This document shows positions 19,207 through 46,499 of a DNA stretch of 64,000 bases, one piece after another (within the stretch, counting starts at the first letter, position 1; every line of letters starts with the position of its first letter). The notes under the pieces are model-generated. The model did no database searches. It was not told the origin of the DNA and saw only the letters and a list, made by a program, of their open reading frames with translations. This DNA is from an uncultured Phycisphaerales bacterium (GTDB lineage Bacteria > Planctomycetota > Phycisphaerae > Tepidisphaerales > Tepidisphaeraceae). The DNA is taken from positions 192,001-256,000 of the forward strand of contig CAVWLP010000003.1 in assembly GCA_963755915.1 (NCBI GenBank), written 5' to 3'. The position numbers and the translations under genes were made by a program.

Positions 19207-19369
19207 CCAGATAAAATCTGACGACCGAAAGGCTCGAAGTCTTCGCCGCGCATTTCATTTGGCAATCGGACTTCGGTGAGCTTAGTCGAACCGCATTCGG
19301 CATTCCCCCAAACTCGCAACCAACCTCCGAAACCCCTAAAATATCGTTCCCTCAACAAGGAACCCTCAC

Positions 19370-20419
19370 ATGCTCACATTTCTAGCTGACGACAACTCTT
19401 CTTCCGGGCCTCAGATGCTCTGGATCATCGTGGCCATCGTCGTCATCATCGTCTGCCTGGTCTTCCTGGCGCTGATTGCGAATTTTCTGGGCCTCTATAT
19501 TCGCGCCCGCGTCAGCGGCGCTCGCGTCGGCTGGCTGGAGCTGATGGGGATGCGGCTGCGGAAAGTGAACGCCCTGGTCATCGTCAACAGCCGAATCCAG
19601 GCCGCCCGCGCCGGGCTGCCCATCAGCCAGCCGGAAATGGAAAGCCATATGCTCGCCGGCGGCGACGTGCAGCGCGTCATCCGCGCCATGATCGCCGCCA
19701 ACAAGGCGGCCATCGATCTTCCCTGGCAGACCGCCACGGCGATCGACCTTGCCGGCCGCGATATCCTTGAAGCCGTGCAGACGAGCGTGAATCCCAAGGT
19801 CATCGACGTTCCCAATCCGCAGTTCGGCCAGCCGACGATCGACGGCGTCTCCAAGGATGGAATTCAGCTTAAGGTGAAAGCCCGCGTCACCGTCCGCACC
19901 AACATCCGTTCTCTCGTCGGCGGAGCGACCGAGGAAACGGTTGTCGCCCGCGTGGGGGAGGGAATCGTCAACGCCATCGGCTCTGCCGCGGATTACAAGC
20001 ATGTGCTGGAGAATCCGGACAACATCTCCAAGGCCGTGCTCGGCAAAGGCCTCGACGCCAACACGGCGTTTGAAATCCTCTCGATCGACATTGCCGAGAT
20101 CACCGTCGGCGAAAACATCGGCGCGAAGCTGGCGGCCGATCGGGCCGAGTCGGACAAACGCCGCTTCCAGGCCGAGGCCGAGCAGCGGCGCGCGATGGCC
20201 GTCGCGCAGGAGCAGGAGAACGTCGCCAACCAGGCGGCCAACCGCGCCATCGTCGTCCTGGCGGAAGCGGAAATCCCCAAGGCGATGGCCGACGCCCTGC
20301 GCAGCGGGCATATCGGCGTGATGGACTATTACAAGCTGAAGAACATTCAATCGGATACGTCGATGCGCGAAGCGATCGCTAAGCCCGGCGATCAGCAGGC
20401 GAAGCCACAGGGCTCTTGA
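19370..20419 (+). CDS. floA: Flotillin-like protein FloA (YqfA/SigW regulon family)
   Basis: [65 protein letters not shown]. Confidence 0.95.
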
Positions 20420-20420
20420 T

Positions 20421-20889
20421 ATGGACCTGATCGAACTGATTGTCCGCGCACTGATCGCCCTGTTCTCTGGGGGGGACCAACAGAGTCAGACGCCTACTCC
20501 GCCCGCCGCCCAGAACTCCTCCGCAAGCTCGCCGGCCCGGCGGAGGTCCGATGAATCGCCAAACTCAATATCCCCAGCGTCCGCCGGCCACGGGTCGTGG
20601 ACCCCAGCGCGGCGCTCCATCGCGCGGCGTGCCACAGCACGGCGCACCAACGCGTGGCGGACCACCGCGCGGCATGCCTCCGATTCCGCTACCTGCCGCC
20701 CCACCGCTGCCGGCAAGATCCGTGGCACAAAAACCGCAGGCCGCCGCGACTGTCGCCGCAGCTCCCCCACCTGCGATCACCGCAGCCGCCATCCGGCAGC
20801 TTCTTCTCTCGCGCCGGTCGGCGCTGCGGACGGTTTATGTGCTTTCTGAAGTTGTTGGTCCGCCGCTGGCTTTGCGGGAATCGGATTGA
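20421..20889 (+). CDS. YqfB-like Pro/Arg-rich protein; probable frameshift in the G-run near 20470
   Basis: N-terminal hydrophobic segment and C-terminal LSEVVGPPLALR motif, typical of genes following floA. Confidence 0.6.
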
Positions 20890-20926
20890 AGATTTTTTAA
20901 CCGCGAAGGTCGCGAAGAGCGCGAAG
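20890..20926. repeat. Family C arm AGATTTTTAACCGCSAAG..CGCGAAGAGCGCGAAG
   Basis: Inverted copy at about 22783-22821; a further inverted pair at 27104-27133 and 27298-27390. Confidence 0.8.
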
Positions 20927-21156
20927 GGGATTTTTTTTGGGTGCCGCGGACATCGGTACAAAAGGTAACAGTCCGCAACAAGCTGGGTAATTTGGGTAGG
21001 CCAGATAAGACAAAATCGCGATTTTTGCCATATTATGCCATCGTATGAAGGCTTATGTGGTCGCAATTCCGGCCGCCCCATCGCTGAACCCTAATCCCGC
21101 CAGTTCTGAGCAATGGAGCTTGTGAGCTTACGTCCAGGTTCCACCGCTCATAATAT

Positions 21157-21762
21157 TCAAGTGGCTTTGGCAGGACCGCACACGAGGGCAACAATGTGCT
21201 CTAGATGCTTGGGGAAGTTAGCAACCCAATCGTCGATTTCTCTTTGCAGCTTGGCCACCGTCTTTGTATCACCAAACGCCGTGGCTATCGCGATGCAACT
21301 AAGCAACGCAAAGATTCGCACCGTTGCGGTGAGCGCGGCAACATCCGCCACTGTCACCTTACTTACCACAAGATGTTCGATCATACGACGGGCCAAATGA
21401 AATTCACGCGCTTCGGGTGCCACCTTAAAAAACTCTTGCACAATGTCGCAGATTTTCGGGAGCTCCGTTCCACCAACCTGCGCCCAAAATAGATCGCAAA
21501 AGTTCTGTGATTCGGAGACTGGAAGATAATTGTGGTCGCCGGCGAATCCGGAAACGCTACCGAGTTGAAACGCCTTCAGCAGCAATTCGACGTCGCTCGG
21601 TAGTTCGGGAGCCAGTTCCATTTGCGCATCGCGAAGGATCACGCAAAAGTCGACGAACCATCCCCTTCGAGCATTTTCAAAGCCCACGGCGATGCACTGG
21701 GAAATGTCACCCCACTCCTCGCGCTTGGGGTAACGCTTGAATAAGTTGTGCAGAAATCCCAC
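21157..21762 (-). CDS. Hypothetical protein (201 aa), accessory
   Basis: Open ORF with AAGGA RBS; lower GC than flanking core genes. Confidence 0.6.
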   Translation of the reverse strand: MGFLHNLFKRYPKREEWGDISQCIAVGFENARRGWFVDFCVILRDAQMELAPELPSDVELLLKAFQLGSVSGFAGDHNYLPVSESQNFCDLFWAQVGGTELPKICDIVQEFFKVAPEAREFHLARRMIEHLVVSKVTVADVAALTATVRIFALLSCIAIATAFGDTKTVAKLQREIDDWVANFPKHLEHIVALVCGPAKAT

Positions 21763-21771
21763 GACGTGTCC

Positions 21772-22032
21772 TTATTTTGGCGGCAGACCAAGGTTCTTTC
21801 GTGCAAGTGCCTCCAAACGCGCGTCAAAGGGTTTCCTAAATGCGTCGTCAGCGGCAATCGCCGAATTCAGATTTTCGTTTGCCAAGTCCACCGCAGCCCT
21901 CGACTCCGCGCTTTCTTCTGCCGTGTTGCGAAGGTACGCCCGCGTCACGGTATCTTTGGCCGCTTCGACCTTGGCGTTCGATTCGTCGAGCGCTTTTAGT
22001 TCGGCCGGTGTAAGAATATCTGAAAGTTCCAT
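21772..22032 (-). CDS. Hypothetical helical protein (86 aa)
   Basis: ORF tightly packed and co-oriented with neighbours. Confidence 0.55.
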   Translation of the reverse strand: MELSDILTPAELKALDESNAKVEAAKDTVTRAYLRNTAEESAESRAAVDLANENLNSAIAADDAFRKPFDARLEALARKNLGLPPK

Positions 22033-22050
22033 ATTTCTTCGTCCATGAGC

Positions 22051-22383
22051 TCAGGCCGCGTCGTCGATCTTCAGCTCGCTCGTGCTAAATCGCACGATCA
22101 AGAATTTGGCCGGGCGGGAAAATTCCCACCGCTTCTCTACCGCGAAAACGGCAATCTGCTCGAAGTCGCCGGACACGAGTTGCCGAAATCGATCTGTATC
22201 GAGAGGGCGCATCTCCTCTATCGAGAAAGGTTCGCTAACACGTAACTTGTAAACTGCGCCCGTCGCTTCGGAACGGAGGAAAATCTCGTAAGTATCGCCC
22301 CTGCGCCCCGTGGCGACCGTCTGGAAATTTTGAACCTTGGGCGAGAGGATTCTCGTTGGTGGTAATGGTCGTCTGTCGCTCAT
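22051..22383 (-). CDS. Hypothetical protein (110 aa)
   Basis: GGAGG RBS upstream of ATG; first gene of a three-gene unit. Confidence 0.6.
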   Translation of the reverse strand: MSDRRPLPPTRILSPKVQNFQTVATGRRGDTYEIFLRSEATGAVYKLRVSEPFSIEEMRPLDTDRFRQLVSGDFEQIAVFAVEKRWEFSRPAKFLIVRFSTSELKIDDAA

Positions 22384-22498
22384 GGTCCATCCTCCGTTGC
22401 TAATTGCCGGGAGTATGTGGGGAATCCCCTTCGGTCTATCGCCGCTGTGGGATATTCCCTTTAATCCCCAATCGTAATTTTATTTGTTATCACCAATG

Positions 22499-22613
22499 GA
22501 TATAGGACGCGAAGAAATAAGGGACCACAGATTACGCGGATGGACGCGGATAAAGCCAAATAAATCGTTTCTGAATTCTTATCCGCGAAATCCGTGAAAT
22601 CCGCGGTTCAATC
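22499..22613. repeat. Family B long imperfect palindrome (ACCACRGATTACGCGGAT...ATCCGCGAAATCCGTGAAATCCGCGGTT)
   Basis: Near-identical direct copy at 24682-24820 and a related copy at 27149-27286. Confidence 0.85.
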
Positions 22614-22846
22614 GTATTTCATGGCGACCTCAATTGAAGGCAGAATGTCGGTAGCGCACAAATCGGACCCCCTCCCTAACCCGCGCTGCGCGAGAGAGTA
22701 GAGCAGTTGAGAGTAGAACAGTAGAAAAATACAAATCTCAGGCGATAGTGGGGGTGGGGAAATGAGGGGCGCGCGGCAGGTCTCTTCTTCGCGCTCTTCG
22801 CGTCTTGGCGGTTAAAAATCTGCTTTCCGATCCGGCGAATTGGGGT

Positions 22847-23516
22847 TCACTTCTCGGTTCTGCCTCTGGCTAGGGCGCACTGTCCATGCCTTGTCAACTT
22901 CCACAACGGCACTGCGAGTGCCGCCCCCAGAATTGGCGCGGTGAGATAAACCCACAGTCCGGCGAGATGCCCCGACACGACGGCGGGCGCGAGAACGGGC
23001 GGGATTCATGGACGCGCCACAAATCGGACCGGCGAACATTGCTTCCAGGCCGATGATCCCGCCCACGGCGATTCCTGCCATCACGCCGGTTTCCTTCGGG
23101 CCGGTGGACACATTCAGGATGACGAGCATAAGCAGGCCGGTCAGGACGGCCTCCAGCGCGAACGATTGCCACGGCGAGCCTGCGGGAATGGTCGCGCCCA
23201 ACGCGGCGCGGTTGCCGAACATGGCGAGCAATGCGCCGCTCGCGACAAACGCCCCAAATAGCTGGGAGACGATGTACGGCACGACGTGCCGGGTGGGAAG
23301 ACGACGCGACAGCCAAAAGCCAATGGTCACCGCCGGGTTTAAGTGGGCGCCCGATACATCGCCAAACGTGTAGATCATCGCCATCACAATCAGGCCGAAG
23401 GTCATGGCGACCCCGACATGCGTAACGGCATGGGTCAGATCGTCAATCACAATCGCGCCGGTGCCCGCGAACACCAAGGCAAACGTCCCTATGGCCTCCG
23501 CAACGTAGCGTCTCAT
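22847..23516 (-). CDS. MIP-family aquaporin/aquaglyceroporin (arsenite-channel candidate); 2-nt frameshift near 22995
   Basis: SGAHLNPAVT and GASMNPARS NPA boxes. The corrected C-terminus reads APAVVSGHLAGLWVYLTAPILGA...RTEK*. Confidence 0.9.
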
Positions 23517-23938
23517 TCGGGAATCCACTTTCGCATGGCTTCATCAATTTCATCGCGAACGCGGCGAAATACTTCGAGCCGTTCGGATTCGCTTCCGGCG
23601 GCGGCGGCAGGGTCATCAAACGGCATGAAGGTTCGGGAGAACGCGCCGGGCCAGAGGCGCGGGCAGGACTGATTGGCATTATCGCAAACGATCAGCACGT
23701 GGCGCACCGGCGACTTGCCCAGAAAATCGCGGACATCTTTGGGCCGCCGGCCGCTGATGTCGATTCCGATTTCGTTCATCACCCGCACGGCCAGCGGATG
23801 TACCTCTGACTTTGGCTGTGTGCCGGCACTGGCGGCAGAGAAGTCATCCGCTTTGTACTTCTTCAAGAATGCCTCGGCCATCTGGCTACGCGCGGAATTG
23901 CCCGTACACAGCACCAGGATCATGGGTTTGTCATCCAT
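23513..23938 (-). CDS. arsC: Arsenate reductase, thioredoxin-coupled LMW-PTP fold
   Basis: CTGNSARSQMAE P-loop, resolving pair CDNANQSCP, FDDP, FRRVRDEI. Confidence 0.9.
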   Translation of the reverse strand: MDDKPMILVLCTGNSARSQMAEAFLKKYKADDFSAASAGTQPKSEVHPLAVRVMNEIGIDISGRRPKDVRDFLGKSPVRHVLIVCDNANQSCPRLWPGAFSRTFMPFDDPAAAAGSESERLEVFRRVRDEIDEAMRKWIPE

Positions 23939-23996
23939 ACGGATTTCCGGATAAAGCCACGCGGCGGTTGTGAACCTGCCGCGTGGGAAATGCTGT

Positions 23997-24074
23997 CTAC
24001 TTTTTGGTTCCGCACGGACAGCCGGGCGGACACTCCGGACAGCAAGAGCAGCAGGTGCAGGACAAAGCAGTCAT
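23997..24074 (-). CDS. 25-aa Cys-rich metallothionein-like peptide (absent from ORF track)
   Basis: MTALSCTCCSCCPECPPGCPCGTKK* (8 Cys); GAGGT RBS just upstream; first ORF after the MerR-type promoter. Confidence 0.7.
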   Translation of the reverse strand: MTALSCTCCSCCPECPPGCPCGTKK

Positions 24075-24141
24075 GGCACACCTCATGGTTAGAGACGGCC
24101 CGGAAGCCATCGCGCGATGGCACAGTTCCGAACCTTGTCAC

Positions 24142-24173
24142 AGTGTAGAGGTTGCACCTTAGTGCAAGGTCAA
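24142..24173 (-). promoter_or_regulatory. MerR-family promoter/operator
   Basis: TTGACC, 20-bp spacer, TACACT, with the dyad TTGCAC-TAAG-GTGCAA in the spacer. Long spacers with an internal dyad are the established MerR/ZntR/CueR architecture. Confidence 0.85.
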
Positions 24174-24616
24174 GGGCTTGCGCGTAGAACAGCGCGGCGA
24201 CGTGCAAATCGCGGATTTGCCGGTCTTGATTCGCTCGATTTCGTTGCACCAGTCGGGGCCGCCCTTGCAGCAGGATTTCAAGGCAATGGACAAGGCCCGG
24301 TCTATGCGCTTCAATTCGCCGAGGCGCTGCTTCACATCCGCAAGGCGGCGCTGAATAGCGCGGCGACTTCATCGCATGGCGGTTCATCCGAGTAGGTCAA
24401 TGCGAGCATTTCGCGAACGTCCTTCAAGCTGAATCCGGTCGCCTGCGCGGCGCGGATAAACTTCAGTCGTTCGGCAGCGCGAGAGGTGTACGTGCGGTAG
24501 TTAGCCTGGGTGCGGGCATCCGGCTTTAACAATCCCCGGCGTTCATAGAACCTGACCGTGGAAGTGGGAACGCCGGCAGCCCTGGCAAGCTCGCCAATTG
24601 TCATTGCGTCTTTCAT
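24159..24616 (-). CDS. MerR-family metal-responsive regulator; frameshift near 24357
   Basis: MTIGELARAAGV..STVRFYERRGLL, YRTY, LKFIRAAQATGFSLKDV, PPC. The corrected C-terminus IQRRLADVKQRL...KSCCKGGPDWC...ICTSPRC...LH* is Cys-rich. Confidence 0.9.
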
Positions 24617-24884
24617 CGTACCCTGGACATCTTTTGGGCGGGCGCGTCGAAAAGCAAGTTGAAACGGCACGCTTCAAAACAGATATAGGACGAAAAGAAA
24701 TAAAAGACCACGGATTACGCGGATGGACTTCGACGAGCGCTCAGTCGAGCGGCACGGATGAAGACAAAGAAATCGTTTTTGAATTCTTATCCGCGAAATC
24801 CGTGAAATCCGCGGTTGAATTAAATTTCCTGGGGATCTAGATGTAGGGCGGAATGCAGATGGCCCGTGAACCACCCCCCCCTCC

Positions 24885-25865
24885 CTAGCCCTCCCCCGGA
24901 GTACCGGGGGCGGGGAAATATGAGAGGGAGAGTGCGGCGAGTTTTTTCTTCGCGCTCGAATCCGCGTAACGCTGCCAGGCATCTGCATGGCCGGCGGGCT
25001 TTACCCGGCGCCCGTGCAGAATCTCGGCGATAATCTCGACCGTCTCGACGATGGTCGTCCCCGAGCGATTGAAATAGAGATTTCCATCCGCCACGGCGAC
25101 TTGACCGCTTCTGACGGCTTTGAGCTGGTCCCATCCTGGCCGACCCTGGAGCATCGGCAACTCACGAAGCGTTTTCTCGATGGCGTAGCCGCAGGGGGCG
25201 ATGATTAAGTGGTCGGGGTCGGCGTCGCGCACGGATTCCCAGGAAATCGGGCGGGAATATTGTCCCTTTTCTCCAAGCAACAGCCAGCCGTTGGCGGCTT
25301 CGACGAGTTCGGGTCCCCAATTGCCCATTGAAAAGATCGGGTCAGTCCACTCGAGCATGACGACCGTCGGTGTGGGCCGGTCTTGTACCGCTTCCGTGAC
25401 GGCTTGGATGCGGGCTCGCATTTGGGCGACGAGCGTTTCGCCCGCCGCGCCAAGATTCATCGCCTGGGCGACGCTTCTGACGCCTGCAAAGATCCCATCG
25501 ACGGAGCCGGCGGTGAGGGCCAACACCTGCGGGGCGAGGAGGCCGCAACCGGCGCGCTGGACATCCTGCGGCGTGACCGCGCATACCTCGCAGTGCGCCT
25601 GTGCAATCAGCAGATCGGGGCGCAGTTCGCGGATGAGGTCCGAATCCACGTGGTAAAGCGGCTCGCCGGCCTTGAGCCGGCGCCGTACCTCGGCGTCTAT
25701 CTTCACGCTGGGCATGTTGACATCGAACGCCGCCCTGGTGCAGGCCGGCAGCTTTCGGACCCAGGGCGGGTTATCGCATTCATGAGATCGACCCACCAGC
25801 GAATCGCCGGCACCGAGGGCACAGACGATTTCCGTCGCGCTGGCTAGAAGTGAAATCACTCTCAT
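24885..25865 (-). CDS. Cobalamin/Fe-siderophore-type periplasmic-binding-fold protein (BtuF-like, no signal peptide)
   Basis: RVISLLASATEIVCALG, VGRSHECD.P, PDLLI.Q..CEVCAV, LEW.DP, DGN.YFNRSG. Confidence 0.8.
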   Translation of the reverse strand: MRVISLLASATEIVCALGAGDSLVGRSHECDNPPWVRKLPACTRAAFDVNMPSVKIDAEVRRRLKAGEPLYHVDSDLIRELRPDLLIAQAHCEVCAVTPQDVQRAGCGLLAPQVLALTAGSVDGIFAGVRSVAQAMNLGAAGETLVAQMRARIQAVTEAVQDRPTPTVVMLEWTDPIFSMGNWGPELVEAANGWLLLGEKGQYSRPISWESVRDADPDHLIIAPCGYAIEKTLRELPMLQGRPGWDQLKAVRSGQVAVADGNLYFNRSGTTIVETVEIIAEILHGRRVKPAGHADAWQRYADSSAKKKLAALSLSYFPAPGTPGEG

Positions 25866-25879
25866 GGCTGGTTCACCTC

Positions 25880-26602
25880 TTACACCGGTGGAATCATTTC
25901 CGCCACCGGCGCCGGCGACGCTTGCGCTCCCTCGGGCAGAAGGTCGGCATAATATCGGCCGTCCCGGATCACGGTCTCACCCACCCGCACGGCCACGGGG
26001 CGGTGGAAAATGGGGCCGTCGTAAACGAAGGAGTGAAATTCACCGTACTCGCCGCAGGGGTCGATTCCGGGCGGCAGATCGCGCAGAAATTCGGCGTCGA
26101 AGGGCCTGCCGACAAATCCCGGTCCCACCTTCCCCTCAACGCAGGAAATGAAGGCCTTGAATCCCATCGCGATCACCTCGCGGGCTAACTGGGTCGTGTC
26201 CCGCTTCCAAACGGGAAAAACTCCCCGCATACCGGCCTTGGCCAGATTGGCCTCACGCCAGGCCCGAAGGTCTTCCAGAAACAGATCTCCAAAGGCGACG
26301 GTTTGGACGCCCCGCGCCTGAAATTTGGCCAGCGCATCGCCCATGATCTGCTCAAAAATTTCGTTGGTGCAGGGATGGGAGCCGCCGGATGGGAAGTAGA
26401 TTTTTTCCAGGGCGATGCCGAGCGCTTCGGCCTGCTGGTCGAGAAGAATTTCGCGCACGCCGTGATGGCTGATCCTGCGATATTCTTCGGATACAGAAAC
26501 GAGCAGCGCCACGATTTCGTACTGGCCGCTCTTGAGCAGCTCATAAACGGCCATGGCGCTGTCTTTACCGCCGCTCCAGGACATGATCACAGGCGTCTTC
26601 AT
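25880..26602 (-). CDS. Adenine nucleotide alpha-hydrolase, Dph6/MJ0570-like ATP-binding protein
   Basis: SWSGGKDS PP-loop, FGDLFLEDLR.WRE, DPCGEYGEFHSFV.DGP.F. Confidence 0.88.
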   Translation of the reverse strand: MKTPVIMSWSGGKDSAMAVYELLKSGQYEIVALLVSVSEEYRRISHHGVREILLDQQAEALGIALEKIYFPSGGSHPCTNEIFEQIMGDALAKFQARGVQTVAFGDLFLEDLRAWREANLAKAGMRGVFPVWKRDTTQLAREVIAMGFKAFISCVEGKVGPGFVGRPFDAEFLRDLPPGIDPCGEYGEFHSFVYDGPIFHRPVAVRVGETVIRDGRYYADLLPEGAQASPAPVAEMIPPV

Positions 26603-26647
26603 CTACTCTTCTCCCGATGGCACGAACCACGGCTCGCTTAACTCTAC

Positions 26648-27040
26648 TTACACGGCCGAGAATTTGTCCAGGCATGACGGACAGAGACAACCTTGGTAAT
26701 CCTGCTCCAGCCGCTTAAGCGTATCGGGGCTGAGGCGAACGGTCTCGCACCAGCAACCGCCATCCGTGCAACAGTCAAAGCCGTTGCCACACTTCGGACA
26801 GACTTTCGCTTGCACGCGTGCGGGACATTCGGCACTGGCAGGCTTACTGTTTGGATACGGACAGTTTCGGCAGCCACTGCCGCAGCACGAGCCGCGAGCG
26901 AGAAGGAAATCGCGCGAGATCGCACCATCCTCGTCAAGAAATGGAAGCAATTGGCCTGCACAAGTTTCACAAACCTCGCGGGACAATGTCTGACGGACCG
27001 CCAGGCACTTTGGGCAGAATCGAAGGATCCTTAGCGGCAT
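26648..27040 (-). CDS. Cys-rich protein (zinc ribbon, DUF5522-like and CWC-like domains)
   Basis: CPKC..CETC, FLLARGSCCGSGCRNCPY, CPKCG..F.C....CWC, CLCPSCL. Confidence 0.75.
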   Translation of the reverse strand: MPLRILRFCPKCLAVRQTLSREVCETCAGQLLPFLDEDGAISRDFLLARGSCCGSGCRNCPYPNSKPASAECPARVQAKVCPKCGNGFDCCTDGGCWCETVRLSPDTLKRLEQDYQGCLCPSCLDKFSAV

Positions 27041-27103
27041 TATTTTGCATGTTACCTGCTATCGATATCCGGTCCAGCTTAGAGCGGTTGCGATTGAAAC
27101 GCG

Positions 27104-27390
27104 TTTAACCGCCAAAACGCCAAGGTCGCCAGGAAAGAAAAGATTTGGAACCGCGGATTGCGCGGATGGACTTCGGCGAGCGCTCAGTCGAGCCGCGCGG
27201 ATAAAGGCAAAGAGACCGTCCTCGAATTCTTATCCGTGCCGGCTCGACTGAGCGCTCGCCGAAGTCCATCCGTGAAATCAGTGGTTATTTTTGTATATTC
27301 TTCGCGCGGTTCGACTGCCTTCGGTTCTGAGGCTCAGGCTCGAAGAGAGCTCACCGAAGTCTCTTGGCGTCCTGGTGGTTAAAAATCTTT
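27104..27390. repeat. Four-level nested repeat composite (C arms, B palindrome, E1 elements, E2 element)
   Basis: E1 at 27169-27194, 27241-27266 and 27308-27361; E2 at 27318-27347 inside E1. Confidence 0.85.
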
Positions 27391-29306
27391 TCAGTTCCGA
27401 CCCAGATGAATCGCCAGCACGGTCACATCCGAGGGCGTGATGCCGCTGATGCGCAGGGCCTGCCCCAAACTGCGGGGATTGAATTTCGTGAACTTCTGCT
27501 TTGCTTCGTTGCGCAGGCCGACGACCCGCGAATAATCCGTGGCCAGCGGGATCAGCTTTGTCTCCAGCTTGGCGAACCGCTCGATTTCGCGGTCCTGGCG
27601 GGCGATGTAGCCTTCGTATTTGATGCGAATTTCCAGACGCTGGGCGACGTCGGGGGAGACGAAGCGGCCAGTTGCGGATAGCGGCGGGTCATCTCTTCAT
27701 GCGCGAAATCCGGGCTGCGGAAAACGGTTTCGGCGCGAAGCTCGCGAATTAACTCGGCGCCGGCGGAAATCGCGTCCCGGCGGGCGGAGAACTGGCGCCA
27801 GCGATGGTCGTCGACCAGGCCGATCTCGCGGCCGATGGGGGTGAGGCGTTCATCGGCGTTGTCGTTGCGAAGATGCAGGCGATGCTCGGCGCGGCTGGTG
27901 AACATGCGATACGGCTCGGTCGGTGGCTTGGTCACCAGGTCGTCGACGAGGACGCCGATGTACGCCTGATCGCGGCGCAGGACGAAATCGGCCTCGCCGC
28001 CGGCGGCATAGCGGGCGGCGTTGATGCCGGCGATGAGGCCCTGGGCGGCGGCCTCTTCGTAGCCGCTGGTGCCGTTGATCTGGCCGGCGAGAAACAGGCC
28101 GGCGATGCGCTTGGTTTGGAGCGTGCTTTGGATCTGCGTCGGCCAGACCATGTCGTATTCGACGGCATAGCCATAGCGGAGAAATTTCGCGTGCTCCAGG
28201 CCGGGGATCAGGCGGACGATGTGTTCCTGCACGTCGGCCGGGAGCGAAGTGCTGATGCCGTTGCAGTAGATTTCGTCGGTGTCGAGGCCTTCGGGCTCGA
28301 GGAAAATCTGATGGCGATCCTTGTCGGCGAAGCGGACGACCTTGTCTTCGATGCTGGGGCAATAGCGCGGGCCGGTGCTTTGAATCTGGCCGGTGTACAT
28401 CGGGGCGCGGTGGAGATTCTGGCGGATGATTTCGTGGATTTCCTGGCACGTGCCGGTGATCCAGCAATTCACCTGCGGCAGCGGAGGGGACCATTCACCC
28501 GCATATTCATTCAAATAGGAAAACGGCGCGGGCCGCTCGTCGCCGGGCTGGTTTTCGAAGGCCGGAAAATCGATCGACTGCCGCTGCAAGCGCGGCGGGG
28601 TGCCGGTCTTGAGGCGGCCCATTTCCAGGCCGAGGTTTTGGAGGCAGGCGGTCAGGCCAGAGGCGGCAGCTTCGCCGACGCGGCCGCCTTCGGTTTGTTT
28701 TTCGCCGGTGTGCATGAGGCCGCGGAGGAAGGTGCCGGTGGTGACGATTGCGGCGCGGCAATGGAGGTGGGTGCCGTCTTTGAGGATGATGGCGCTGACG
28801 GCGGGAGTTGTGCTCGTGCCGAATCCACTGTGTGAGTTTTGGGCTTTGAATTCCGCCGGTGAGGACACCGGCGGCACTCTGGTTGCCGGCGAAGTTGTGG
28901 AGGGAAAAGTAGAGCAGAAGGGCGAGGTGCAAATCTCGGCGACTTCGCCTTGAACGATCGTCAGGTTTGGGCAGGTGTGCAAAAGCTCCTGCACGCGTTT
29001 GGCATATTTGTATTTGTCGGCCTGGGCGCGCGGCCCCCACACTGCCGGGCCCTTGGAGCGATTGAGCATGCGGAACTGAATTCCGGTGTCGTCGGTGGCG
29101 AGGCCCATCAGGCCGCCGAGGGCGTCGATCTCGCGGACCATCTGGCCCTTGGCGAGTCCCCCGATGGCCGGATTGCACGACATCTGGCCGATTTTGGTTT
29201 GGTCCATGGTGATCAGGGCGACGCTGGCGCCGAGGCGGGAGGCAGCCCAGGCGGCTTCGGCGCCGGCGTGACCTCCGCCGATGATGATGATGTCGTAACC
29301 GGCCAT
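27391..29306 (-). CDS. mnmG: tRNA uridine 5-carboxymethylaminomethyl modification enzyme; frameshift near 27660
   Basis: IIGGGHAGAEAA, MSCNPAIGG.AKG, LNRSKGPAV, RLKTGTPPR, GPRYCPSIEDK, AGQINGTSGYEEAAAQG, EPYRMFTSRAE; C-terminus ISGITPSD. Confidence 0.96.
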
Positions 29307-31079: not shown

Positions 31080-31127
31080 GCGAAAAGAGTGGAAGCGAAG
31101 GAGGGAGGAAATGCAATCGGAGGAATC

Positions 31128-34583: not shown

Positions 34584-34600
34584 CGCACCATCTTACAAAC

Positions 34601-34631: not shown

Positions 34632-34684
34632 CAAGCACTACTTAAAGCACGTGGCGCTTGTGCCCTGCGCCTATGCTTGAGTAA

Positions 34685-35635: not shown

Positions 35636-36029
35636 CACAAAAAACTCCCCTCCCCTTTTTTGGGGATTCGTGGACAATCGGATGGGAATACGTATTTCGA
35701 ACCTATCGAAATGAATCGCGCCCAGCCGGTTCAATGCAACGCCGCAAAACGGTATCGCGAAACCGCAATTGATGAAGGCGAAGTTTACGCAGCAACATGA
35801 GCGCCTCATCAATCGGAGGTTTGCGTAACGAAAATGTTTGATGATACGGAAATGAAAAATGAGGCGATTCAAAATCGCGGTTCGCGCAACCAATCAGGCC
35901 TCGTTTCCAGATTTTTACGGCGAAACGTGACTTAAACAAGTCAGTAAAAAACCTGCGGTGGATGGCGATGCCTGGGACTGGGCGAGGGGGAATTGCGGAC
36001 AACCGGAAAAAGAGGCGAGCCTGCAACAA

Positions 36030-36062
36030 ACAAAACGGCCTTCGGCGATGCCGAAGGCCGTT
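36030..36062 (-). terminator. Intrinsic terminator after PEP-CTERM gene 2
   Basis: AACGGCCTTCGGC-GAT-GCCGAAGGCCGTT stem followed by T-rich tail on the minus strand. Confidence 0.7.
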
Positions 36063-36091
36063 CGGTTATTCAATTGTGCCCGGAGAAACGC

Positions 36092-37274: not shown

Positions 37275-37488
37275 TTTTTCGCCTCCGTGTGCGATGGTTA
37301 TTTTGAGTGTGAAGCGGCCGGCGAGATGCCGATAGAAACGCCTCTCCCCAATTCGGATGCTTAAAATAGGAAGCGGCTGTCGTTTTTAGAGAAGTGTCTC
37401 GCTAAATTCGCGTTAAGATTCGGCTAATACGCAGGCGCCTATAGGTTTGGCACCATTCGGCCTCAGCCGGCGTGTAATATGCCCCGTT

Positions 37489-39600: not shown

Positions 39601-41653
39601 CCTTCAATTTTCGCAGTTGCGCGGCGACCTGCTCGCCGAGCCCCGCCCAGTCCCCCGCCGATTCCTGGCGGAAAATCCGCATTGAGGGATACCAAGGAGA
39701 ATCGTCGCGATCGACCATCCACCGCCAATCGGCCACGTGGGGAAGCATCAGCCAGACCGGCTTGCCCATCGCCCCGGCGAGGTGGGCAACCGCCGTATCG
39801 CAGGCGATGACCAGATCCAAGTTCGCCAGCAGCGCCGCCGTGTCGGCGAAATCGTTCAGCTCGGCCGTCCAATCGGCGATCTGCATTCCCGCCGGCGGCG
39901 TCGCCGCCTGGCGCGCGGCCGGACCTTTCTGAAGGCTGCACAGCCACGTATCCGCGACCGCGCTCAGCGGCGCCAGCGCCTCCAGCGAAAACGAACGGCG
40001 CTGATCGTCCGAGTGCGTCGGATTCCCCCACCAGCAGAGGCCCACCTTCTTTCTCTCATCACGCGGAATCCGCGACTTCCAGCGCTCGACCAATTCCGCG
40101 TCCGGAAAAACATACGGGATGCTTAGCGGGATCGTTTCCACCGTCGTCCCAAGCCGGTAGGGAAGGCTCATCATCGGACACTGCAAATCGAATTGCGGCA
40201 GCTCCTGCGGCTGCGAAAGGATTTCGTCCAGGCATGGCACCGTCTTGAGCAACCGCCGCAGCTCCGGATGGGTGATCAGAATCGTTTTGGCGCCGCGCGG
40301 AAATCACCGGAATGAACCGCGCAAACTGGATCGAATCGCCAAAGCCCTGCTCGCTGTCGATGAGAAATCTCTTGCCCGCGACTTCTTCCCCCTCCCAGAT
40401 TCCCCGCTGGGCGTAGCGCGTCGGCTGGATGAGGTTGCGCGCTTTCCAGCGCGTCTCATATCCCGCCCATCCCTCCGTGAAATTTCCCGTCAGAAGCTGC
40501 ATCATCGCCAGGTTAAATCGCGCCAGATCGAACTGCGGATCGAGCGACAGCGCCTTCTGGAAAAGTTGCATCGCCTGCTTGTTCTGCCCAAGCTGGCGGT
40601 AAATGGCGCCCAGATTGTTGTAGACCGGCGGAATGCGGAATCCGCGCGACTCAGCCGCCTGATATTCCGCGATGGCCTCCTGAAGCCGGCCGCTTTCGAA
40701 ATACGCCGTGGCGAGGTTGTAGCGCACCTCGAGCGAATCCTCGATCTGAAGCGACTTGGCAAACGCTTCGATCGCCCCCTCGCGCAATTTAAGTCCCAGC
40801 ATCACGTTGCCCAGCTCGTTAAAAGCCATCGCAAACCGGCTATCCAGCGCCAGCGCCTGCCGAAGCTCCTGAGCCGATTCTTCAAAACGATTTTGCAGAT
40901 GCAGCGCCCGACCGAGGTTGAAATGCAGCGGCGCGGAATCGGGTCGGGCGACGAGGGCGCGGCGGGTCATGTCGATCGCCTCGTCGGTTTGCCCGCGCTG
41001 GCACAAAAGTCCGCCCAGCGTCGTCATCACCTCCGGATAATCCGGGCGAAGCGCCAGTGCCGTGCGGAACGACGCCACCGCCTCGTCGATGCGATTGAGA
41101 CGCAGCAGCGCGTTGCCCAGGTTGTGGTGCGTGGGCGCGTAGTCGGATCGAATCGCCAGCGCCCGCTGAAGAATCTCGACCGCCTCTTCCTGCCGACCGG
41201 CCTGGGAGAGCGCGCTGCCGAGGTGATCCAGGATCCGGAAATCGCTGGGGCGCGACGCAGCGCCTTCTGCAACGAATCGATCGCTTCCTGAAACCGCTTG
41301 AGCCGCAGTAGCGTCATCCCTTTGTTTTCGTGGGCATCGGCCAGGTCGGGCTGAAGGAGCAGCGCCCGTTCAAAGGCCTCAAGGGCCTGCTGCGAACGTC
41401 CGGCCGTCGCGTGGGCGGCGCCCAGGTTGGAATGAAAGTGCGCCGCCGTTGGATTCAGCGTAATCGCCCGGCGGATGTAATCGACCGCGACATCCGTCTG
41501 CCCCACCTGGCTGGCCAGAAGCCCCGTCAGATGCAGGGCATGGGCATTGTTGGGATCGGCGGCGAGGATTTTTCGGTAGATCGTATCGGCTTCGCGCAGG
41601 CGGCCCGCCTGATGGTGCTGTACCGCGAGGTCCAGCGCCTGCTGAAGGGACAT
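39590..41653 (-). CDS. TPR plus GT9-like glycosyltransferase domain protein; multiple frameshifts
   Basis: TPRs, GW..YE.RW, EQGFGDSIQFARF, PMMSLP, DFADTAALLANLDLVIACDTAVAHLAGAMG, WRW, SPWYPS. Confidence 0.87.
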
Positions 41654-42148
41654 GGTTGTACTGCCGGGTTTTTCCATCGAGCCACTACGCGGGCGAATAC
41701 AATACTGCTGGCCTTGCATCCTTGCACGCCGGGAACATGGGGAACTCAGCCCGGCCCCGTCCGACCGGGAATTTGCTCGGCCAACAGGGATTCAGGGCTG
41801 CAAAATAATTCCGGCTCCATATTTCTTGCAGAAATCCAACCGTTTCGGATCGGCCCAGTCCGACGCAAATCTCCATCTAAAATCAATCATTATAGAAAGT
41901 TAAGACACGTATACCAACATGAATGTAACGACTTGTAATCGCTATAGGGAAAATCCCTATGCCAAAATGAGGGATCGTAATCATGACGAAAACTGCCAGC
42001 CACGGTCTGCTATGTGCGTCGTAATCGGCCTTGGCGAATCCAGCCGCCGTTTTCTTAGCGCGTCCGGGCTCCCAAGGGGGGGCCGGACTCGCGGATAACG
42101 GCGGCTCTTTTTTTTTCCCTCCTCTTATTTCCTCCACCGCCCAACCAA

Positions 42149-43553
42149 TCAATAAGCCCGTTCGAGCTTTGCCTGCGGATATCCGTCCGCCAGGATCTGC
42201 TCGAAATTCTCTCCTGCCGCGGCCTGGGCATCGGCGGTCCACTGGCACATCCCCACGCCGTGGCCAAAGCCATGGCCATCGTAAAACGTCACCTGCGAAG
42301 AACCGGGACTGGCGCTGATCTTGCAAAAACTGCTCGGCAGCGTCGGGCCTTTGCCGGAATCGGTGTTCACCACGGCACGAAGCTGCTCGGCAGGCCAACT
42401 ATATTGTGTGCCGCGCATCGACGACCAGCACGCGGTTGGGGCGACCAAAGCGGTTATAGCTTTGGATCTGGATGGTAAGGACGTCGGCCATGCTTTGCTC
42501 TGCGATCGTGCGGCCAATCTGCTCCCCCGTGCGCTGTGCCCAGATGTGAATCCGCCGGGTGAGCTCCTGCTTGGAAATTGTGATCGGGCCCCAGTTAAAA
42601 TATTTACACCCGCTGGAGAGCGTGCCGTGCGACTGCTCCGCCAGCGGGGGAATATAGGGCTCGCCCGGAAAAGCATCCGACGCGGCCTGGGTGACTCCCC
42701 CGCAGCAACTGCTGAAATAGGAGCGGAAAATCGTGCCGTCGCCGGGTCCGTAGGTCAGCACGATCCCCTGCGTCGAGGCGACAGCCTGACGGCCGCTCGC
42801 CGTCTCTGCGTTCATGCCGCCGTACATCTGGCTGCGCTGATCTCCATAGACATCCCACGGCCTGCCCATGCCGCTTGTATGCGTCTCGTAAAGCGCGTAG
42901 GTCCGCGACGCGACGGCCTGGGCCTTGAGCGCCTCGACCGGCCAATCGGGATACATCTCCTTCGTCACGACGCCCGCAAGATAGTCTTCGACGGCAACAT
43001 TGTTGATGACATTGATTCGCCCCCCCGCCAACGGCACCAGGCGAACCGAGCCGCGATAAGTAATTCCGTCGACCGCAATCGGCCCCCCCGCCGTCGGCTG
43101 AAGGTCCAGCGTGCCGGAGCGAAGCATGAGACGCCCAATGCGCCATCCCTGCGGCGTCAGCGAGATGGGAACCGCCATCCCTCCGGGCAAACTCAGCGCC
43201 ACCGGCTGCGAATCAAGCAAAACCTGCGGACTATCGGCCTGGAAATTAATCAGCGACGCCCCCTGCACGATCAGCACGCGCAACTGCGGTGAATTCACCG
43301 CAATCGGCGCAACTGAGTTGTCTTCGCTACATCCAAAGGGAAGCAGGAGAAGGAGTGCCAGTGCTAAAAACACACCAAGCGGAAAGCCCCTCTTGTCCCC
43401 TCCCCTGGTACTCCGGGGGAGGGTGGGGGTGGGGGCTGGAACGCCAATCAGCGAGGATTTTAGTGCAACAATTCGATTCGAATTTCGAGTTTCGAATTTC
43501 GAGTTTCGCCGCAATGGCGCAACGATCTTCCGAAAAACTCTTCCCGGCATCAT
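42149..43553 (-). CDS. SpoIID/LytB-domain lipoprotein (lytic transglycosylase); frameshift near 42410
   Basis: YRG, EDYLAGVV..EM, EALKAQAVASRTYA, Q.YGG, FSSCCGG, GFGHGVGMCQW; lipobox LPFGC; AAGGAGG RBS. Confidence 0.9.
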
Positions 43554-43592
43554 GGCCTCCTTGCCAAGATTGCGGTCTCTATTTAAGGCGCT

Positions 43593-44498
43593 CTACTCTT
43601 CGAGCTTCCGCAGCGACATGCCAAACGTCGTAAGCTGCTGCTTGATCTCGTTGAGGCTCGTCTGGCCGAAATTCTTGCACCCCAGCAGCTCGTCTTCCGT
43701 GCGGGCCGCGAGGTCGCCCAGGGTGTTGATGTTCAGCCGCTGCAGCGCCTTGCGGCTGCGGACTGACAACTCCATATCGGTCACGTTCTTACCCAGAACT
43801 TCCGGCGGAACATTGCCCGCGATCGGAGCCGTGCGCCGCACCGCCGTCTTCGATTCATCGGCCGCCTGGCCCAGGCGCAAAGCCTTCTGCGCCAGCAGCG
43901 CCTTGATTTCGTTCAGGCTTGTCTCGCCGAAATTCTTGTAGCTCAGCAATTCCTGCTCGGTCGTCTTCAGCAGATCGCCCAGCGTGCGGATGTTCATCTT
44001 CTTCAGGCAATTCCGGCTCCGGACCGAAAGCTCGAAATCCGTGACCGGCACGCTGAGCACCGCGCTGCGGCGATCGCCCCGGCCGTCGAGATCGTCGTCG
44101 TAATGAATGCTCCGCGCCGATTCCACATCCTTCATATAAAGCCGGGCGCGAATGTTGTTGGGGCTGGTGCGAAGAACCGCATCGAGGCAACGATGGGCTT
44201 CATCGTAGTGATTGTTGTCTTCGTATAGGATCGCCAGGTTCATCAACGCATTGAGATGTACCGGCGGGCTGGTGCAGATGCGCTCATAAAGCTCAATCGC
44301 CTTGGCATCCTCCGCCCGGCGATCGTAGAGCACCGCCAGGTGAAACGCCGCCAGCTCGTGGTCCGGGTTTTCGTTGAGGGAGCGTTCGAAAAACTCGATC
44401 GCCTTTTCATGCAGTGCCTGCTGCTCTGCATCGATCCCACGCCGGTAATATTCTTCTGCCGCCCGCTCGTTAATAGAAGAGACTGTGGCTTCGCTCAT
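43593..44498 (-). CDS. TPR protein with two RNA polymerase alpha-CTD-like domains
   Basis: N-terminal TPRs, then two copies of ELSVRSR..L....I.TLGDL...TE.ELL..KNFG.TSLNEIK. Confidence 0.9.
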   Translation of the reverse strand: MSEATVSSINERAAEEYYRRGIDAEQQALHEKAIEFFERSLNENPDHELAAFHLAVLYDRRAEDAKAIELYERICTSPPVHLNALMNLAILYEDNNHYDEAHRCLDAVLRTSPNNIRARLYMKDVESARSIHYDDDLDGRGDRRSAVLSVPVTDFELSVRSRNCLKKMNIRTLGDLLKTTEQELLSYKNFGETSLNEIKALLAQKALRLGQAADESKTAVRRTAPIAGNVPPEVLGKNVTDMELSVRSRKALQRLNINTLGDLAARTEDELLGCKNFGQTSLNEIKQQLTTFGMSLRKLEE

Positions 44499-44714
44499 AT
44501 CGTCGTCATTCCAGTGGGAAAAAGAAAGTGTGCTCGTCCCGGCCGGCCGAAACGCAGCCGGGGCGGGAGGGCCTGCATCATAAGTGGCGTGCAGCGGTCG
44601 CGTCAACCGCTGGGGCATCTACCCCCTCCCCACGTCAGTCCAATCGCTTTCGCGCCCTACCCTCAAATTTTTTTCAGAAAATCCGCCGATTTCCTAAAAA
44701 TAGGTACAAAACGT

Positions 44715-46204
44715 TAATCCCGTTCGGCACGCAGGCTTCATCGGAGCATTCCAAAGCTGTGGAGGACGCGAAACAATTGAAGCTTAGATACTTTTACTTT
44801 CCCCTGCTGCACGCCGGCGTCCGCAAGAGCGCAGCATCAACCGCGAGGTCTCCGCGGCGACGGATTCCCCTTCAGTTTACTCCCAGTTTTTTCAAGGCCT
44901 CCGCTCTTGCCCTCAGCTTAATCCCGGTGTTATCCGGCTTGTTCAGGAATCGAAGCACGTCCTGTTCCTCGGCCAGCCCCAGCAGATACCAGCCGATCAT
45001 GTTCCGCATCGCCTTGTTCGGCTTCCTGCCGCTGATCAGCTGAATCAGCACGCAGACGATCAGCGCGCAGTGGATTTGGATGTCGATCCCCTCCTGGCGT
45101 TGGCTCAGCAGGTGACGCATGCCCAGCAGTTGCTTGAAGATCCGGAAGAACAACTCAACGGTGTAGCGGTACAGATAAATCAGGGCGATCAATTCCGCCG
45201 GCAGGTCCAGCAGGTTCGTGTACAGGATGATCAGGTCCGTCGGCTTGTTGCCGCTGCGCGTGCGGCGCGGATGGGGTTTCACCTGCACTTCCACCCGTCG
45301 CACCACCCTATCCGCCGCCGTCTCCAGGCCGTCGAGTTTCACCAGCGCGTCTCGCACCACGCCGCCGTCCAATGCTTCCTGTGAAAGCAATCGTTCTTCA
45401 AACAGCTCAAACACCGAGTTTTCCGCGGCCCGCATCACAAAGGAGCTTTGCGCCGCGGCGATGTCCGCAAAGAGGCTCCGGTCGGCGTAGCCGCCGTCTC
45501 CTACATAGCACCGTCCTGCTTCCAGGCTGCGCCGCAGGACGTTGTTTTCACGGTTGGCCCCCGCGTTGCGAGCGCCAGTGCGGTCGAGGCGATGGACTTT
45601 GAACGTCTCCAGATCGAATTGAACGTGCAAACGCCAGCCATAGACCGCTTTCCCGTCCCGGGAGGTGTTGTAGCGCGCATCGATGCCGCAAGCGGATTTG
45701 GCCAGCCGACTCAGCGCCGTCAGCACCGTCCCGTCGACCAGCGTGATCGCCTGCCCAAAGTCCGCAAGACGCGGATCGGGCGCCTGGGGCAGTTCCCCCG
45801 CCAATTCCTCAATCAGCGGCGTCAAACGCCCCGGCTCGAACACCCGAACCGATTCAGAGAAACTGCCCACGGAAAAACGCTTAATTCCCAGCGCCTTGGC
45901 CACCTTGGGCAGTTCAGCAACCTCCTGAAGATCCCGCAGGGATTGGATCAGCGGATTCCAGGTGTAAAGCAAAACCAGCTTGCAATAATCGTCGAAGTGA
46001 AGCTGGCGGTTCCCGGCTCGATCCCGCTCACAGCCCACATCCCGCAGCGTGGGCAGCAGCGCGAAGACGCGCCGCAGATGTCCGAGGCACAGGATCTCTT
46101 TTTCCTTCAGTCTTGCCTGCACGTCCGGCAGCATGCCATAAAAAGATCAAAGGCGCAATCTCAATATCTTGCTGCTTGCGCGAACCCCGTGCCGAACGGG
46201 ATTA
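44715..46204 (-). mobile_element. IS4-family insertion sequence (1490 bp)
   Basis: Perfect 17-bp IRs TAATCCCGTTCGGCACG (44715-44731; reverse complement at 46188-46204) and 9-bp direct repeat ACAAAACGT at 44706-44714 and 46205-46213. Confidence 0.95.
44872..46134 (-). CDS. IS4-family DDE transposase
   Basis: LVDGT, YVGDGGY and the Y-x2-R-x3-E-x2-F-R-x2-K (YREK) signature YLYRYTVELFFRIFK. Confidence 0.93.
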   Translation of the reverse strand: MLPDVQARLKEKEILCLGHLRRVFALLPTLRDVGCERDRAGNRQLHFDDYCKLVLLYTWNPLIQSLRDLQEVAELPKVAKALGIKRFSVGSFSESVRVFEPGRLTPLIEELAGELPQAPDPRLADFGQAITLVDGTVLTALSRLAKSACGIDARYNTSRDGKAVYGWRLHVQFDLETFKVHRLDRTGARNAGANRENNVLRRSLEAGRCYVGDGGYADRSLFADIAAAQSSFVMRAAENSVFELFEERLLSQEALDGGVVRDALVKLDGLETAADRVVRRVEVQVKPHPRRTRSGNKPTDLIILYTNLLDLPAELIALIYLYRYTVELFFRIFKQLLGMRHLLSQRQEGIDIQIHCALIVCVLIQLISGRKPNKAMRNMIGWYLLGLAEEQDVLRFLNKPDNTGIKLRARAEALKKLGVN

Positions 46205-46499
46205 ACAAAACGTACACCTTTTGGACCTGTATATAATAGATGCATCTTATTTTCGACCCATATACCGCTGCAATCTTCCCCGGATCACCAATCCCAGCTC
46301 AGGGAGAAAATAACTCGCGCTCAAATCCCGGGCATTTCCGGACATTTTCGGACATCCCCGTTTAGCGGCCCCGCTCGACTTCGGTGAGCTCGGTCGAACC
46401 GCGGGGCGCGTTCCCATGGCCCAAAAACCCAATACATTACTTTAGAAATACACCCGTAAGACTGCTATCGTACCGAGCTTGTCACCCGCACCCGCAAAA

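Follow-up and report, generated by a model that had tools for sequence, protein, structure and literature searches.

A 64,000-nucleotide (nt) window from the genome of an uncultured Phycisphaerales bacterium (contig C3, positions 192001-256000) raises the question of what kind of genetic entity a sequence of merely 24 nt can be, when it is found complete and with the same borders inside several quite different repeats. This sequence, termed E1 and reading GACTTCGRYGAGCTCAGTCGARYC, also occurs in variants of 25 and 26 nt. The analysis of the window, of its whole genome (designated G000: 6.63 Mb, three contigs, 59% G+C) and of genomes from other lineages leaves hardly any room for doubt that E1 is gained and lost to the exact base, enters many unrelated targets without duplicating them, leaves no truncated copies and has multiplied across phyla. 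Taken as a whole, E1 is probably a non-autonomous mobile micro-element, for which the cutting and joining of a single DNA strand by an activity supplied in trans is proposed; the single-strand mechanism, considered by itself, is put forward tentatively.

Within the window, the copies claimed by the initial annotation were all recovered, comprising the 24-nt form at two places, a 26-nt variant at three, and one interrupted copy. The 24-nt copy at 19269-19292 (plus strand) lies in a run of GGCAATC/GGCATTC heptamers and departs from the consensus of the initial annotation at a single position (GCTTAG for GCTCAG); like runs free of E1 exist elsewhere in the genome and at 14041-14076 (plus strand), the latter matching well. 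The copy at 46377-46400 (plus strand), likewise with one mismatch (GCTCGG for GCTCAG), occupies the loop of the hairpin GCCCCGC..GCGGGGC in a GTTTAGC-headed REP-like repeat at 46368-46407, the empty paralogues of which read gccccgcttgcggggc. Among the 26-nt copies, that at 24726-24751 (plus strand, with the GAGCGCTCAG loop and two mismatches to the 26-nt pattern) is embedded in an element built of CGCGGAT repeats, whose E1-free counterpart at about 22499-22600 is approximate, as had been stated at the outset, while those at 27169-27194 (plus strand) and 27241-27266 (minus strand) take mirror positions in the left and right arms of one palindromic CGCGGAT-repeat element. The interrupted copy at 27308-27361 (minus strand) belongs to the 25-nt class and is split after GAGCTC by a 30-nt sibling micro-element, E2 (27317-27346, minus strand); the orthologous site in the sole close relative of G000 (G001, about 90% identical) harbors E1 without E2. 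The window also contains an empty site at 20908-20930 (plus strand), where the G001 orthologue (locus L041) carries E1 and G000 has an exact 24-nt gap between 20918 and 20919. Shuffling the window 100 times produced no match to either the 24-nt or the 26-nt pattern.

Counted as the pattern with at most one substitution plus the following G, E1 is present in 81 copies in G000, and their flanks of 12+12 nt group into 19 clusters, of which the largest three hold 22, 19 and 8 copies and ten are singletons. For in-silico excision, the 25 nt on the left and the 25 nt on the right of each of 105 candidates from a looser regular expression were joined and compared with the genome by BLAST. Removal of exactly 24 nt yielded a gap-free match spanning the junction for 80 of the 105 candidates, several of them being 100% identical over 30-49 nt (49/49 at C3:901113 and C2:350014), and in at least 14 host repeat families the joined flanks equal E1-free copies, which substantiates on the scale of the genome the original proposal that excision of E1 restores the host repeat. 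Among the hosts are two REP-like hairpins headed by GT(G/T)TAGC, several other hairpins, five kinds of heptamer or octamer run, and E2 itself, and nesting reaches three levels, with E1 inside an E2 that is in turn inside another E1. No half or truncated copies were found in G000, where apparent half-sites proved to be point variants, chance words of coding sequence or E1 with a nested E2, and this absence makes target-primed reverse transcription unlikely. The boundaries of E1 are thus discrete, and no longer miniature inverted-repeat transposable element (MITE) or insertion sequence (IS) end was found of which E1 could be a fragment. According to a home-made gene call, 74 of the 81 copies are intergenic.

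Filled and empty states of the same site were revealed by comparison with G001. When 38 of its E1 sites were taken with 1.2 kb on either side and aligned to G000, 15 aligned across the site, and at six of these (L023, L027, L028, L041, L046 and L049, with L041 being the empty site of the window) G000 shows an exact 24-nt gap within a conserved host repeat. At one locus the gap measures 31 nt, the length of E1 with a heptamer added; three loci carry E1 in both genomes, and the remaining five are diverged or devoid of the host repeat. The reverse case was encountered at C3:1278486, which is filled in G000 and opposed by an exact 24-nt gap in G001, so that empty alleles exist between the two genomes in both directions. 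In the other species of the genus, the flanking genes reach only about 70% identity and do not lie side by side, which makes these species unusable as outgroups.

The properties of the target were assessed with 139 unique sites from other genomes and viral contigs. The base directly 3' of the insert (+1) is G in 135 of them, while +2 is C or T in 115, -1 is G in 71 and -2 is C in 76, which gives a weak consensus CG|GY. The insert consists of a fixed 23-nt core, ACTTCGRYGAGCTCAGTCGARYC, with a G on both sides, one of the two belonging to the target; the site is lengthened by exactly 24 nt, or by 25-26 nt in the case of the variants. The initial G of E1 leaves three equivalent descriptions of the event, namely 24 nt put 5' of a G, 24 nt put 3' of a G, or the 23-nt core accompanied by a 1-nt duplication. 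The excision joins, the G001 gaps and the DNA alignment of a photolyase gene described below all bear out the earlier statement that there is no target duplication beyond a shared G. The companion statement, that E1 targets structured repeats, holds in part: flanks able to form a stem of at least 6 bp across the insert are enriched (21% of the 139 sites versus 3.5% of mismatched-flank controls), with E1 typically at the 5' edge of the loop at hairpin sites, but most sites have no stem, and the sampled copies in a chloroflexotal genome (G042) lie mostly in genes. E1 enters other repeats, the loops as well as the stems of hairpins, its own copies and in-frame positions of genes. Insertion of E1 into E1 takes place mostly between A16 and G17 (seven of 23 sampled copies in G043, a delta-proteobacterial metagenome-assembled genome, MAG), and three of 23 sampled copies in G042 lie within the reverse complement of E1. 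The concentration of copies in the repeats of G000 may reflect harmless sites and hitch-hiking on host repeats rather than targeting.

Insertions inside genes give a view of E1 in unique sequence. Sixteen of the 23 sampled copies of G042, compared with three of 23 in G043, are situated in open reading frames (ORFs) of at least 250 aa with a coding-like pattern of G+C at third codon positions; such copies are in frame, on either strand, and E1, as read from its sequence, is free of stop codons in five of the six frames. Pfam domains were recognized in six of seven tested E1-bearing ORFs of G042, namely photolyase, an AddB-like helicase-nuclease, Wzy_C (twice), PTPS_related and a YfhO membrane protein. 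In the photolyase, E1 occupies the interdomain linker, where its reverse complement is translated in frame into residues 204-211 (GSTELAEV). Exactly these eight residues are missing from all five aligned orthologues (68-82% identical), and in the DNA alignment the gap is a clean one of 24 nt, sharing a single C that reads as G on the E1 strand; since the insert is absent from every one of the five, the event is a gain and not a deletion. In G043, six E1 copies are accommodated in the linkers of an ORF composed of tandem PP-binding (acyl carrier protein, ACP) domains. A further coding locus was noticed by eye in L049 of G001 and its counterpart in G000 (C2:2586822-2589250), where a GTTTAGCC-type repeat and E1 lie together within the 5' portion of a gene, the product of which resembles a prepilin-type leader at its start (..GFTLVELLVV), so placed that the E1 of G001 would add eight residues before the cleavage motif.

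The distribution of E1 extends far beyond its own genus. Among 41 related genomes, the exact pattern was detected in 15, including 10 of 12 other species of the genus and four of 12 other genera of the family; the 16 genomes examined from outside the family but within the class were all negative, and the reversed pattern, serving as a control, gave no match in any of the 41; within the genus the copy number ranges from 0 to 42. A scan of one genome per prokaryotic species returned at least 121 E1 stretches, and the record titles among the matches listed span about 15 phylum-level labels, covering Planctomycetota (several orders), Verrucomicrobiota, Victivallales, Chloroflexota, Nitrospirota, Nitrospinota, Desulfobacterota together with 'delta' groups, Acidobacteriota, Latescibacterota, Bdellovibrionota, Gemmatimonadota, a gammaproteobacterium, Tectomicrobia, Sumerlaeota and Abyssobacteria. 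Several of these matches reside on contigs of 0.2-7.7 Mb, and no cyanobacterial record is among the matches listed. Allowing at most one mismatch, 77 copies were counted in a Planctomycetaceae chromosome (G045), 75 in the delta-proteobacterial MAG G043, 62 in G042 (Candidatus Amarolinea of the Chloroflexota, according to the title of L069), three in a Latescibacterota genome (G041) and two in a member of the Nitrospiraceae (G044), and every E1-rich genome has its own dominant compensatory variant. Viral contigs contain 22 E1 stretches, at most three per contig, and the plasmids of PLSDB yielded no exact E1, with partial matches only (E >= 0.06).

These compensatory variants afford a glimpse of the form in which E1 is recognized. 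Four variable positions co-vary, such that pairs 8-23 and 9-22 are of Watson-Crick or wobble type in 78 of 82 copies from other phyla, in all 35 from G000 and in 37 of 38 from G001; at pair 8-23, G.T was observed 25 times versus three times for A*C, the wobble of the other strand. Pairs C6-G25 and G7-C24 complete a 4-bp stem, the last pair of which draws on the G beyond the 24-mer (the base following E1 is G in 152 of 155 copies of the pairing data set), and the same 4-bp stem is the minimum-energy fold of E1 plus G in ViennaRNA. The co-variation suggests that one strand is recognized in single-stranded form, and that recognition depends on a protein and not on the strand's own stability. In the mechanism proposed here, the active form would be one strand, as written, in which C6-G7-R8-Y9 folds with R22-Y23-C24-G25, the last stem pair using the G of the target or of the junction. 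A trans-acting enzyme working on single-stranded DNA would cut and join 5' of G (C-S|G at the left end, at the right end and in the target), whereupon the survival of copies would be filtered by harmlessness. Such a filter would explain copies in loops, repeats and protein linkers, as 24 nt are equal to eight codons and five of six frames are open. Mobilization in trans is argued for by the facts that E1 carries no gene, does not lie in a longer element and has no enriched gene family in its neighborhood; the candidate enzymes would be RAYT-like (REP-associated tyrosine transposase) Y1 (HUH) transposases, small GIY-YIG single-strand nucleases, or something undescribed. From the initial description of an ultra-short non-autonomous element mobilized in trans, the discrete, gene-less and base-exact nature of E1 is retained, and the accompanying notion of structured repeats as its targets turned out to be too narrow.

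A number of observations weigh against this reading, and others of the same tendency are met in the search for the enzyme. By itself, E1 folds at -2 kcal/mol, a value that shuffled sequences equal (z = -0.05), so that the epithet 'palindromic' given to it in the initial annotation is true in a weak sense, and the pairing evidence amounts to about two independent double changes, because the haplotypes are few and spread by copying. The written strand of E1 is found on the locally C-rich strand for 65 of 81 copies in G000 (Fisher test, p = 3.7e-8) and 29 of 38 in G001 (p = 0.003), but this replication-strand bias had to be rejected as general evidence on E1: E1-free host repeats share it to the same or a stronger degree (36 of 39 in one family), and 20 loci each from G042 and G043 show no trace of it (p = 1), which makes the bias a property of the repeat community of the genus. 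Forty-nine of the 81 copies in G000 sit in three host families, with one fixed site and the same orientation in each, so that hitch-hiking or conversion could explain many of the local events. As to the breadth of distribution, L085 and L135 have identical flanks around E1 in two MAGs labelled Bryobacteraceae and Tepidisphaeraceae, respectively; one of the two contigs is probably mis-binned, and some phylum labels may therefore stem from mis-binning. Read data covering the stretch were listed for four soil runs of one study, and for no RNA data set. The short-read contigs of these runs, compared with window positions 18500-28000, end at the repeat blocks at 19.2, 24.88-24.92 and 27.36 kb, and because none bridges an E1 site, the reads are uninformative on filled and empty alleles in one population. 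Lastly, a survey of the genes up to 1.5 kb from E1 in G000 revealed no enriched family, and the genes between close E1 pairs are ordinary.

Two features of G000 were noted alongside. Its GC skew, reaching +/-0.25 in 100-kb windows, changes sign every 0.1-0.5 Mb without any link to gene orientation, and the intergenic repeat families track it closely, which suggests many inversions or assembly joins in a genome with replication-strand-oriented repeats. Moreover, a transposase family named IS110-like from a reading of its N-terminus is present in nine copies, of which those at C3:806176-807237 and C2:4754284-4755345 stand beside E1-bearing repeats; two of nine copies adjoining E1, against 0.45 expected, are too few to weigh.

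Nuclease or transposase genes flanked by E1, which the initial annotation had envisaged, could not be linked to it among the gene neighbors in G000, the Y1 loci or the GIY-YIG loci. It is doubtful that a RAYT-like Y1 (HUH) transposase moves E1 on a folded single strand in the manner supposed for REPs and REPINs. G000 does encode two Y1_Tnp proteins (195 and 247 aa) whose best NCBIfam match, below the cut-off, is the REP-associated tyrosine transposase, and one of the two genes is bracketed by inverted GTTTAGCC-headed repeats that are themselves E1 hosts; relatives of the 195-aa Y1 protein were detected in 13 of 14 E1-positive versus three of 10 E1-free genomes of the family, Y1_Tnp genes are present in all five tested genomes of other phyla, and footprint-free insertion without target duplication, combined with a strand-specific fold, would suit HUH chemistry by analogy with IS200/IS605. 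The correlation is, however, inflated by kinship; relatives of the 195-aa protein are also encoded in E1-free genomes of other families (G026, G032 and G037), and G011, with 15 E1 copies, has no match to it. Each of the two Y1 genes of G000 has repeats of its own, and not E1, on its sides, 11 of 12 Y1 loci in the five other genomes are without E1 and the twelfth has it about 1.4 kb from the gene, and a separate Y1-like locus in G045 has E1 about 400 bp upstream; E1 brackets neither of the latter two genes. In addition, E1 lacks the GTAG or CGTC tag of REPs, and its one weak stem and 1-nt target are unlike IS200/IS605, the enzymes of which need a 4-5-nt target and two end hairpins. It seems unlikely, too, that E1 is the recognition motif of a small single-domain GIY-YIG nuclease related to Ssn, the cuts of which its spread would follow. 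The available text of PMC11893778 describes Ssn enzymes of about 94 aa that cut single-stranded DNA only and one motif strand only, and that are accompanied, in various phyla, by hairpin repeats of 20-50 nt numbering in the hundreds. A 101-aa GIY-YIG gene is located in G000 directly behind a tRNA gene, and its orthologues (at least 67% identity, or a partial 75% match) are confined to the E1-positive genomes G001, G011, G015, G017 and G006, none at that level being found in 10 E1-free genomes of the family; the homologue in G043 is flanked by repeats with CTGAGC..GTCGAAG words. On the other hand, the only GIY-YIG match in G042, for all its 62 E1 copies, is in a 685-aa ORF, and G009 and G012, with eight copies each, have no match. 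The spacer before the GIY-YIG gene resembles E1 and E2 mostly no better than shuffles do (p 0.01-0.68, mostly >0.05), no E1 at up to four substitutions is present at the GIY-YIG loci, nor is the gene flanked by it, and the 101-aa protein hits Pfam PF01541 only, with no NCBIfam match. A nuclease alone would also leave the joining unexplained. The results for the RAYT-like and the GIY-YIG candidates are weak or mixed, and neither is accepted or dismissed.

The remaining explanations dispense with mobility or with an enzyme. E1 might be immobile by itself, having entered a few repeat families once and thereafter ridden on its hosts, with gene conversion or recombination between filled and empty copies; this accords with the crowding of 49 copies into three families, with the large number and the strand orientation of the host repeats, and with the position of all six exact G001/G000 gaps inside host repeats. 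It is nevertheless quite unlikely to be the whole account, in view of the 139 different flank contexts in other genomes, the presence of E1 in unique coding sequence (as exemplified by the photolyase insert, absent from five of five orthologues), self-nesting at several positions, and the occupation of one host site by different compensatory variants; the 10-20 nt of homology per side are, moreover, short for RecA-type conversion. Retention of E1 for a function in the cell, either as a protein-binding site or as an RNA hairpin, with its conservation across phyla as the outcome, would be in keeping with the near-invariance of the 24-mer in unrelated phyla, the maintenance of the stem pairs, and the change of 0-1 nt in copies common to G000 and G001, the flanks of which differ by about 10%. 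The orientation relative to the flanking genes is, by contrast, even in G000 (++ 23, -- 19, +- 18, -+ 14), which argues against an RNA role, no Rfam family matches any E1 site, and copies lie in frame in genes on either strand. Considering also that the copy number varies from 0 to 42 within one genus and that presence and absence at orthologous sites have no visible consequence, a cellular function is very unlikely. Finally, copies could arise with no dedicated enzyme, if replication or repair switched templates or miscopied at hairpins, as the enrichment of hairpins at E1 sites would allow; yet a local copying error cannot place the same 24 letters at hundreds of unrelated sites across phyla, and the boundaries are exact with no partial copies, so that this explanation is scarcely credible.

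The loci of the two candidate enzymes are of some interest in their own right. The Y1 genes at C3:576251-576838 (L062) and C3:1125058-1125801 (L061) stand beside housekeeping genes, and each is bracketed by its own inverted palindromic repeats in a REPtron-like layout. The 101-aa GIY-YIG gene lies at C1:84953-85258 in G000 (L244/L248) and is also represented by L249-L253; in six genomes, the left end of its element, about 31 nt long, starts right after the 3' end of three different tRNAs, and the whole unit looks like a small mobile element that targets tRNA ends.

E1 also appears to have company. Approximately 49 E2-like regular-expression hits, counted on both strands, are distributed over G000, which contains seven whole composites of E1 and E2 and one cut-short composite, with E2 at one fixed position of E1 in all eight. 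E2 starts with G(A/T)CTTCG and is followed by G, and the words CTTCG, CTGAG/CTCAG and CGAAG are common to E2 and E1. A module of 24 nt built around a GAGC..GTCGAAGG core appears inserted in the spacer before the GIY-YIG gene of G017 (L252), at a point occupied by a single base in five related genomes, and it may likewise belong to the E1/E2 guild. A related word, CTTCGAC(A/C)AGCTCAG(G/C)(G/A)CGA, is present at three places in G044 of the Nitrospiraceae and hints at a wider superfamily of such motifs.

E1 is among the smallest mobile DNA units seen, and its closest likeness is to the small dispersed repeats (SDR) SDR4-6 of heterocystous cyanobacteria, which Elhai and co-workers are said to have described in 2008 as dispersed, gene-less units of 21-27 nt. 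In the available portion of PMC4390886, the insertion point of SDR5 is placed precisely between nucleotides three and four of the HIP1 octamer, and SDR are mentioned in the available text of PMC3116915 and PMC2884548. E1 resembles them in being 24-26 nt long, dispersed (81 copies in G000) and gene-less, in being present or absent to the base and nested in other repeats, and in that a mobilizing enzyme is known for neither; it differs in sequence, in having multiplied in many phyla where SDR are described for one cyanobacterial group, in having a single G as its target, and in being common in frame in genes in one lineage. MITEs possess terminal inverted repeats and target duplications and measure 50-500 nt, while IS200/IS605 relatives insert without duplication. 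E1 shares with MITEs and with palindrome-associated elements derived from IS200/IS605 the non-autonomous state and movement in trans, but unlike a MITE it has 24 nt, ends that are not inverted repeats and no duplication beyond one shared G; measured against single-strand transposition of the IS200/IS605 type, the picture is mixed, with no duplication, a G at +1 and one folding strand, but also a 1-nt target, one weak stem and no general replication-strand bias. Rickettsia palindromic elements (RPE), of 100-150 nt and found in one genus, insert in frame in genes. E1 likewise adds a short peptide to functional genes by in-frame insertion, the differences being that it adds eight residues and is cross-phylum. 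RPE are mentioned alongside REPs in ORFs in the available part of PMC3733652, where it is also reported that some REP families insert within small palindromes or ORFs, their stems often containing G-T pairs (Di Nocera et al. 2013). REPs and REPINs, as presented in the available text of PMC3733652 and of Bertels and Rainey 2011 (PMC3116915), are short (20-40 nt) structured repeats, mostly intergenic and thought to be moved in trans via single-stranded DNA, as is proposed for E1, which differs from them in the lack of the GTAG/CGTC tag, in a stem of 4 bp only, in flanking no RAYT gene and in not forming inverted doublets of its own; E1 is instead a guest inside REP-like repeats. The NTS and SRM motifs of Ssn are similar to E1 as short directional motifs with tens to hundreds of copies across phyla, one strand of which is recognized, whereas SRMs flank the ssn gene and E1 flanks none, and the NTS sequence given in the available portion of the same source, which does not describe SRMs as inserting into other sequences, is unrelated (Chenal et al. 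2025, PMC11893778). Twenty-nt strings of the E1 sequence were not found in the literature searched, nor was a description of E1 in the literature on the smallest mobile elements and on Planctomycetes repeats. Compared with all these systems, E1 is distinctive for one fixed sequence in many phyla, for a target of G only, for self-nesting, and for its location mainly in genes in one lineage.

With the reading of E1 as a mobile micro-element, a bolder interpretation may conceivably be joined, in which E1 is the substrate of a widespread, unrecognized cut-and-join activity on single-stranded DNA, exerted by a new enzyme family or by a host enzyme in a moonlighting role; this activity would insert an oligonucleotide of 23 nt, able to form a hairpin, between any base and a G. 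If this were true, no transposable unit known to have spread across the bacterial phyla would be smaller than E1, which would also represent a natural means of placing short oligonucleotides, or peptides of eight residues, into DNA. The record of very short mobile repeats comes mainly from a single cyanobacterial group and, in the case of REPs, from one lineage at a time; E1 bears on the question of how units too short for two transposon ends move. The same 24 letters have multiplied independently in Planctomycetota, Chloroflexota, delta-proteobacteria and others, which makes phylogenetic profiling for the enzyme possible; meanwhile, E1 offers clean insertion polarity at a coding site and a substrate of a size suited to biochemistry with oligonucleotides. 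What is taken for an intergenic 'repeat family' can be a mosaic of nested units, which matters for annotation, for repeat-based typing and for assembly, the last because short-read contigs broke at these very sites. For the uncultured bacteria themselves, it follows that their genes can bear 8-residue inserts of selfish origin.

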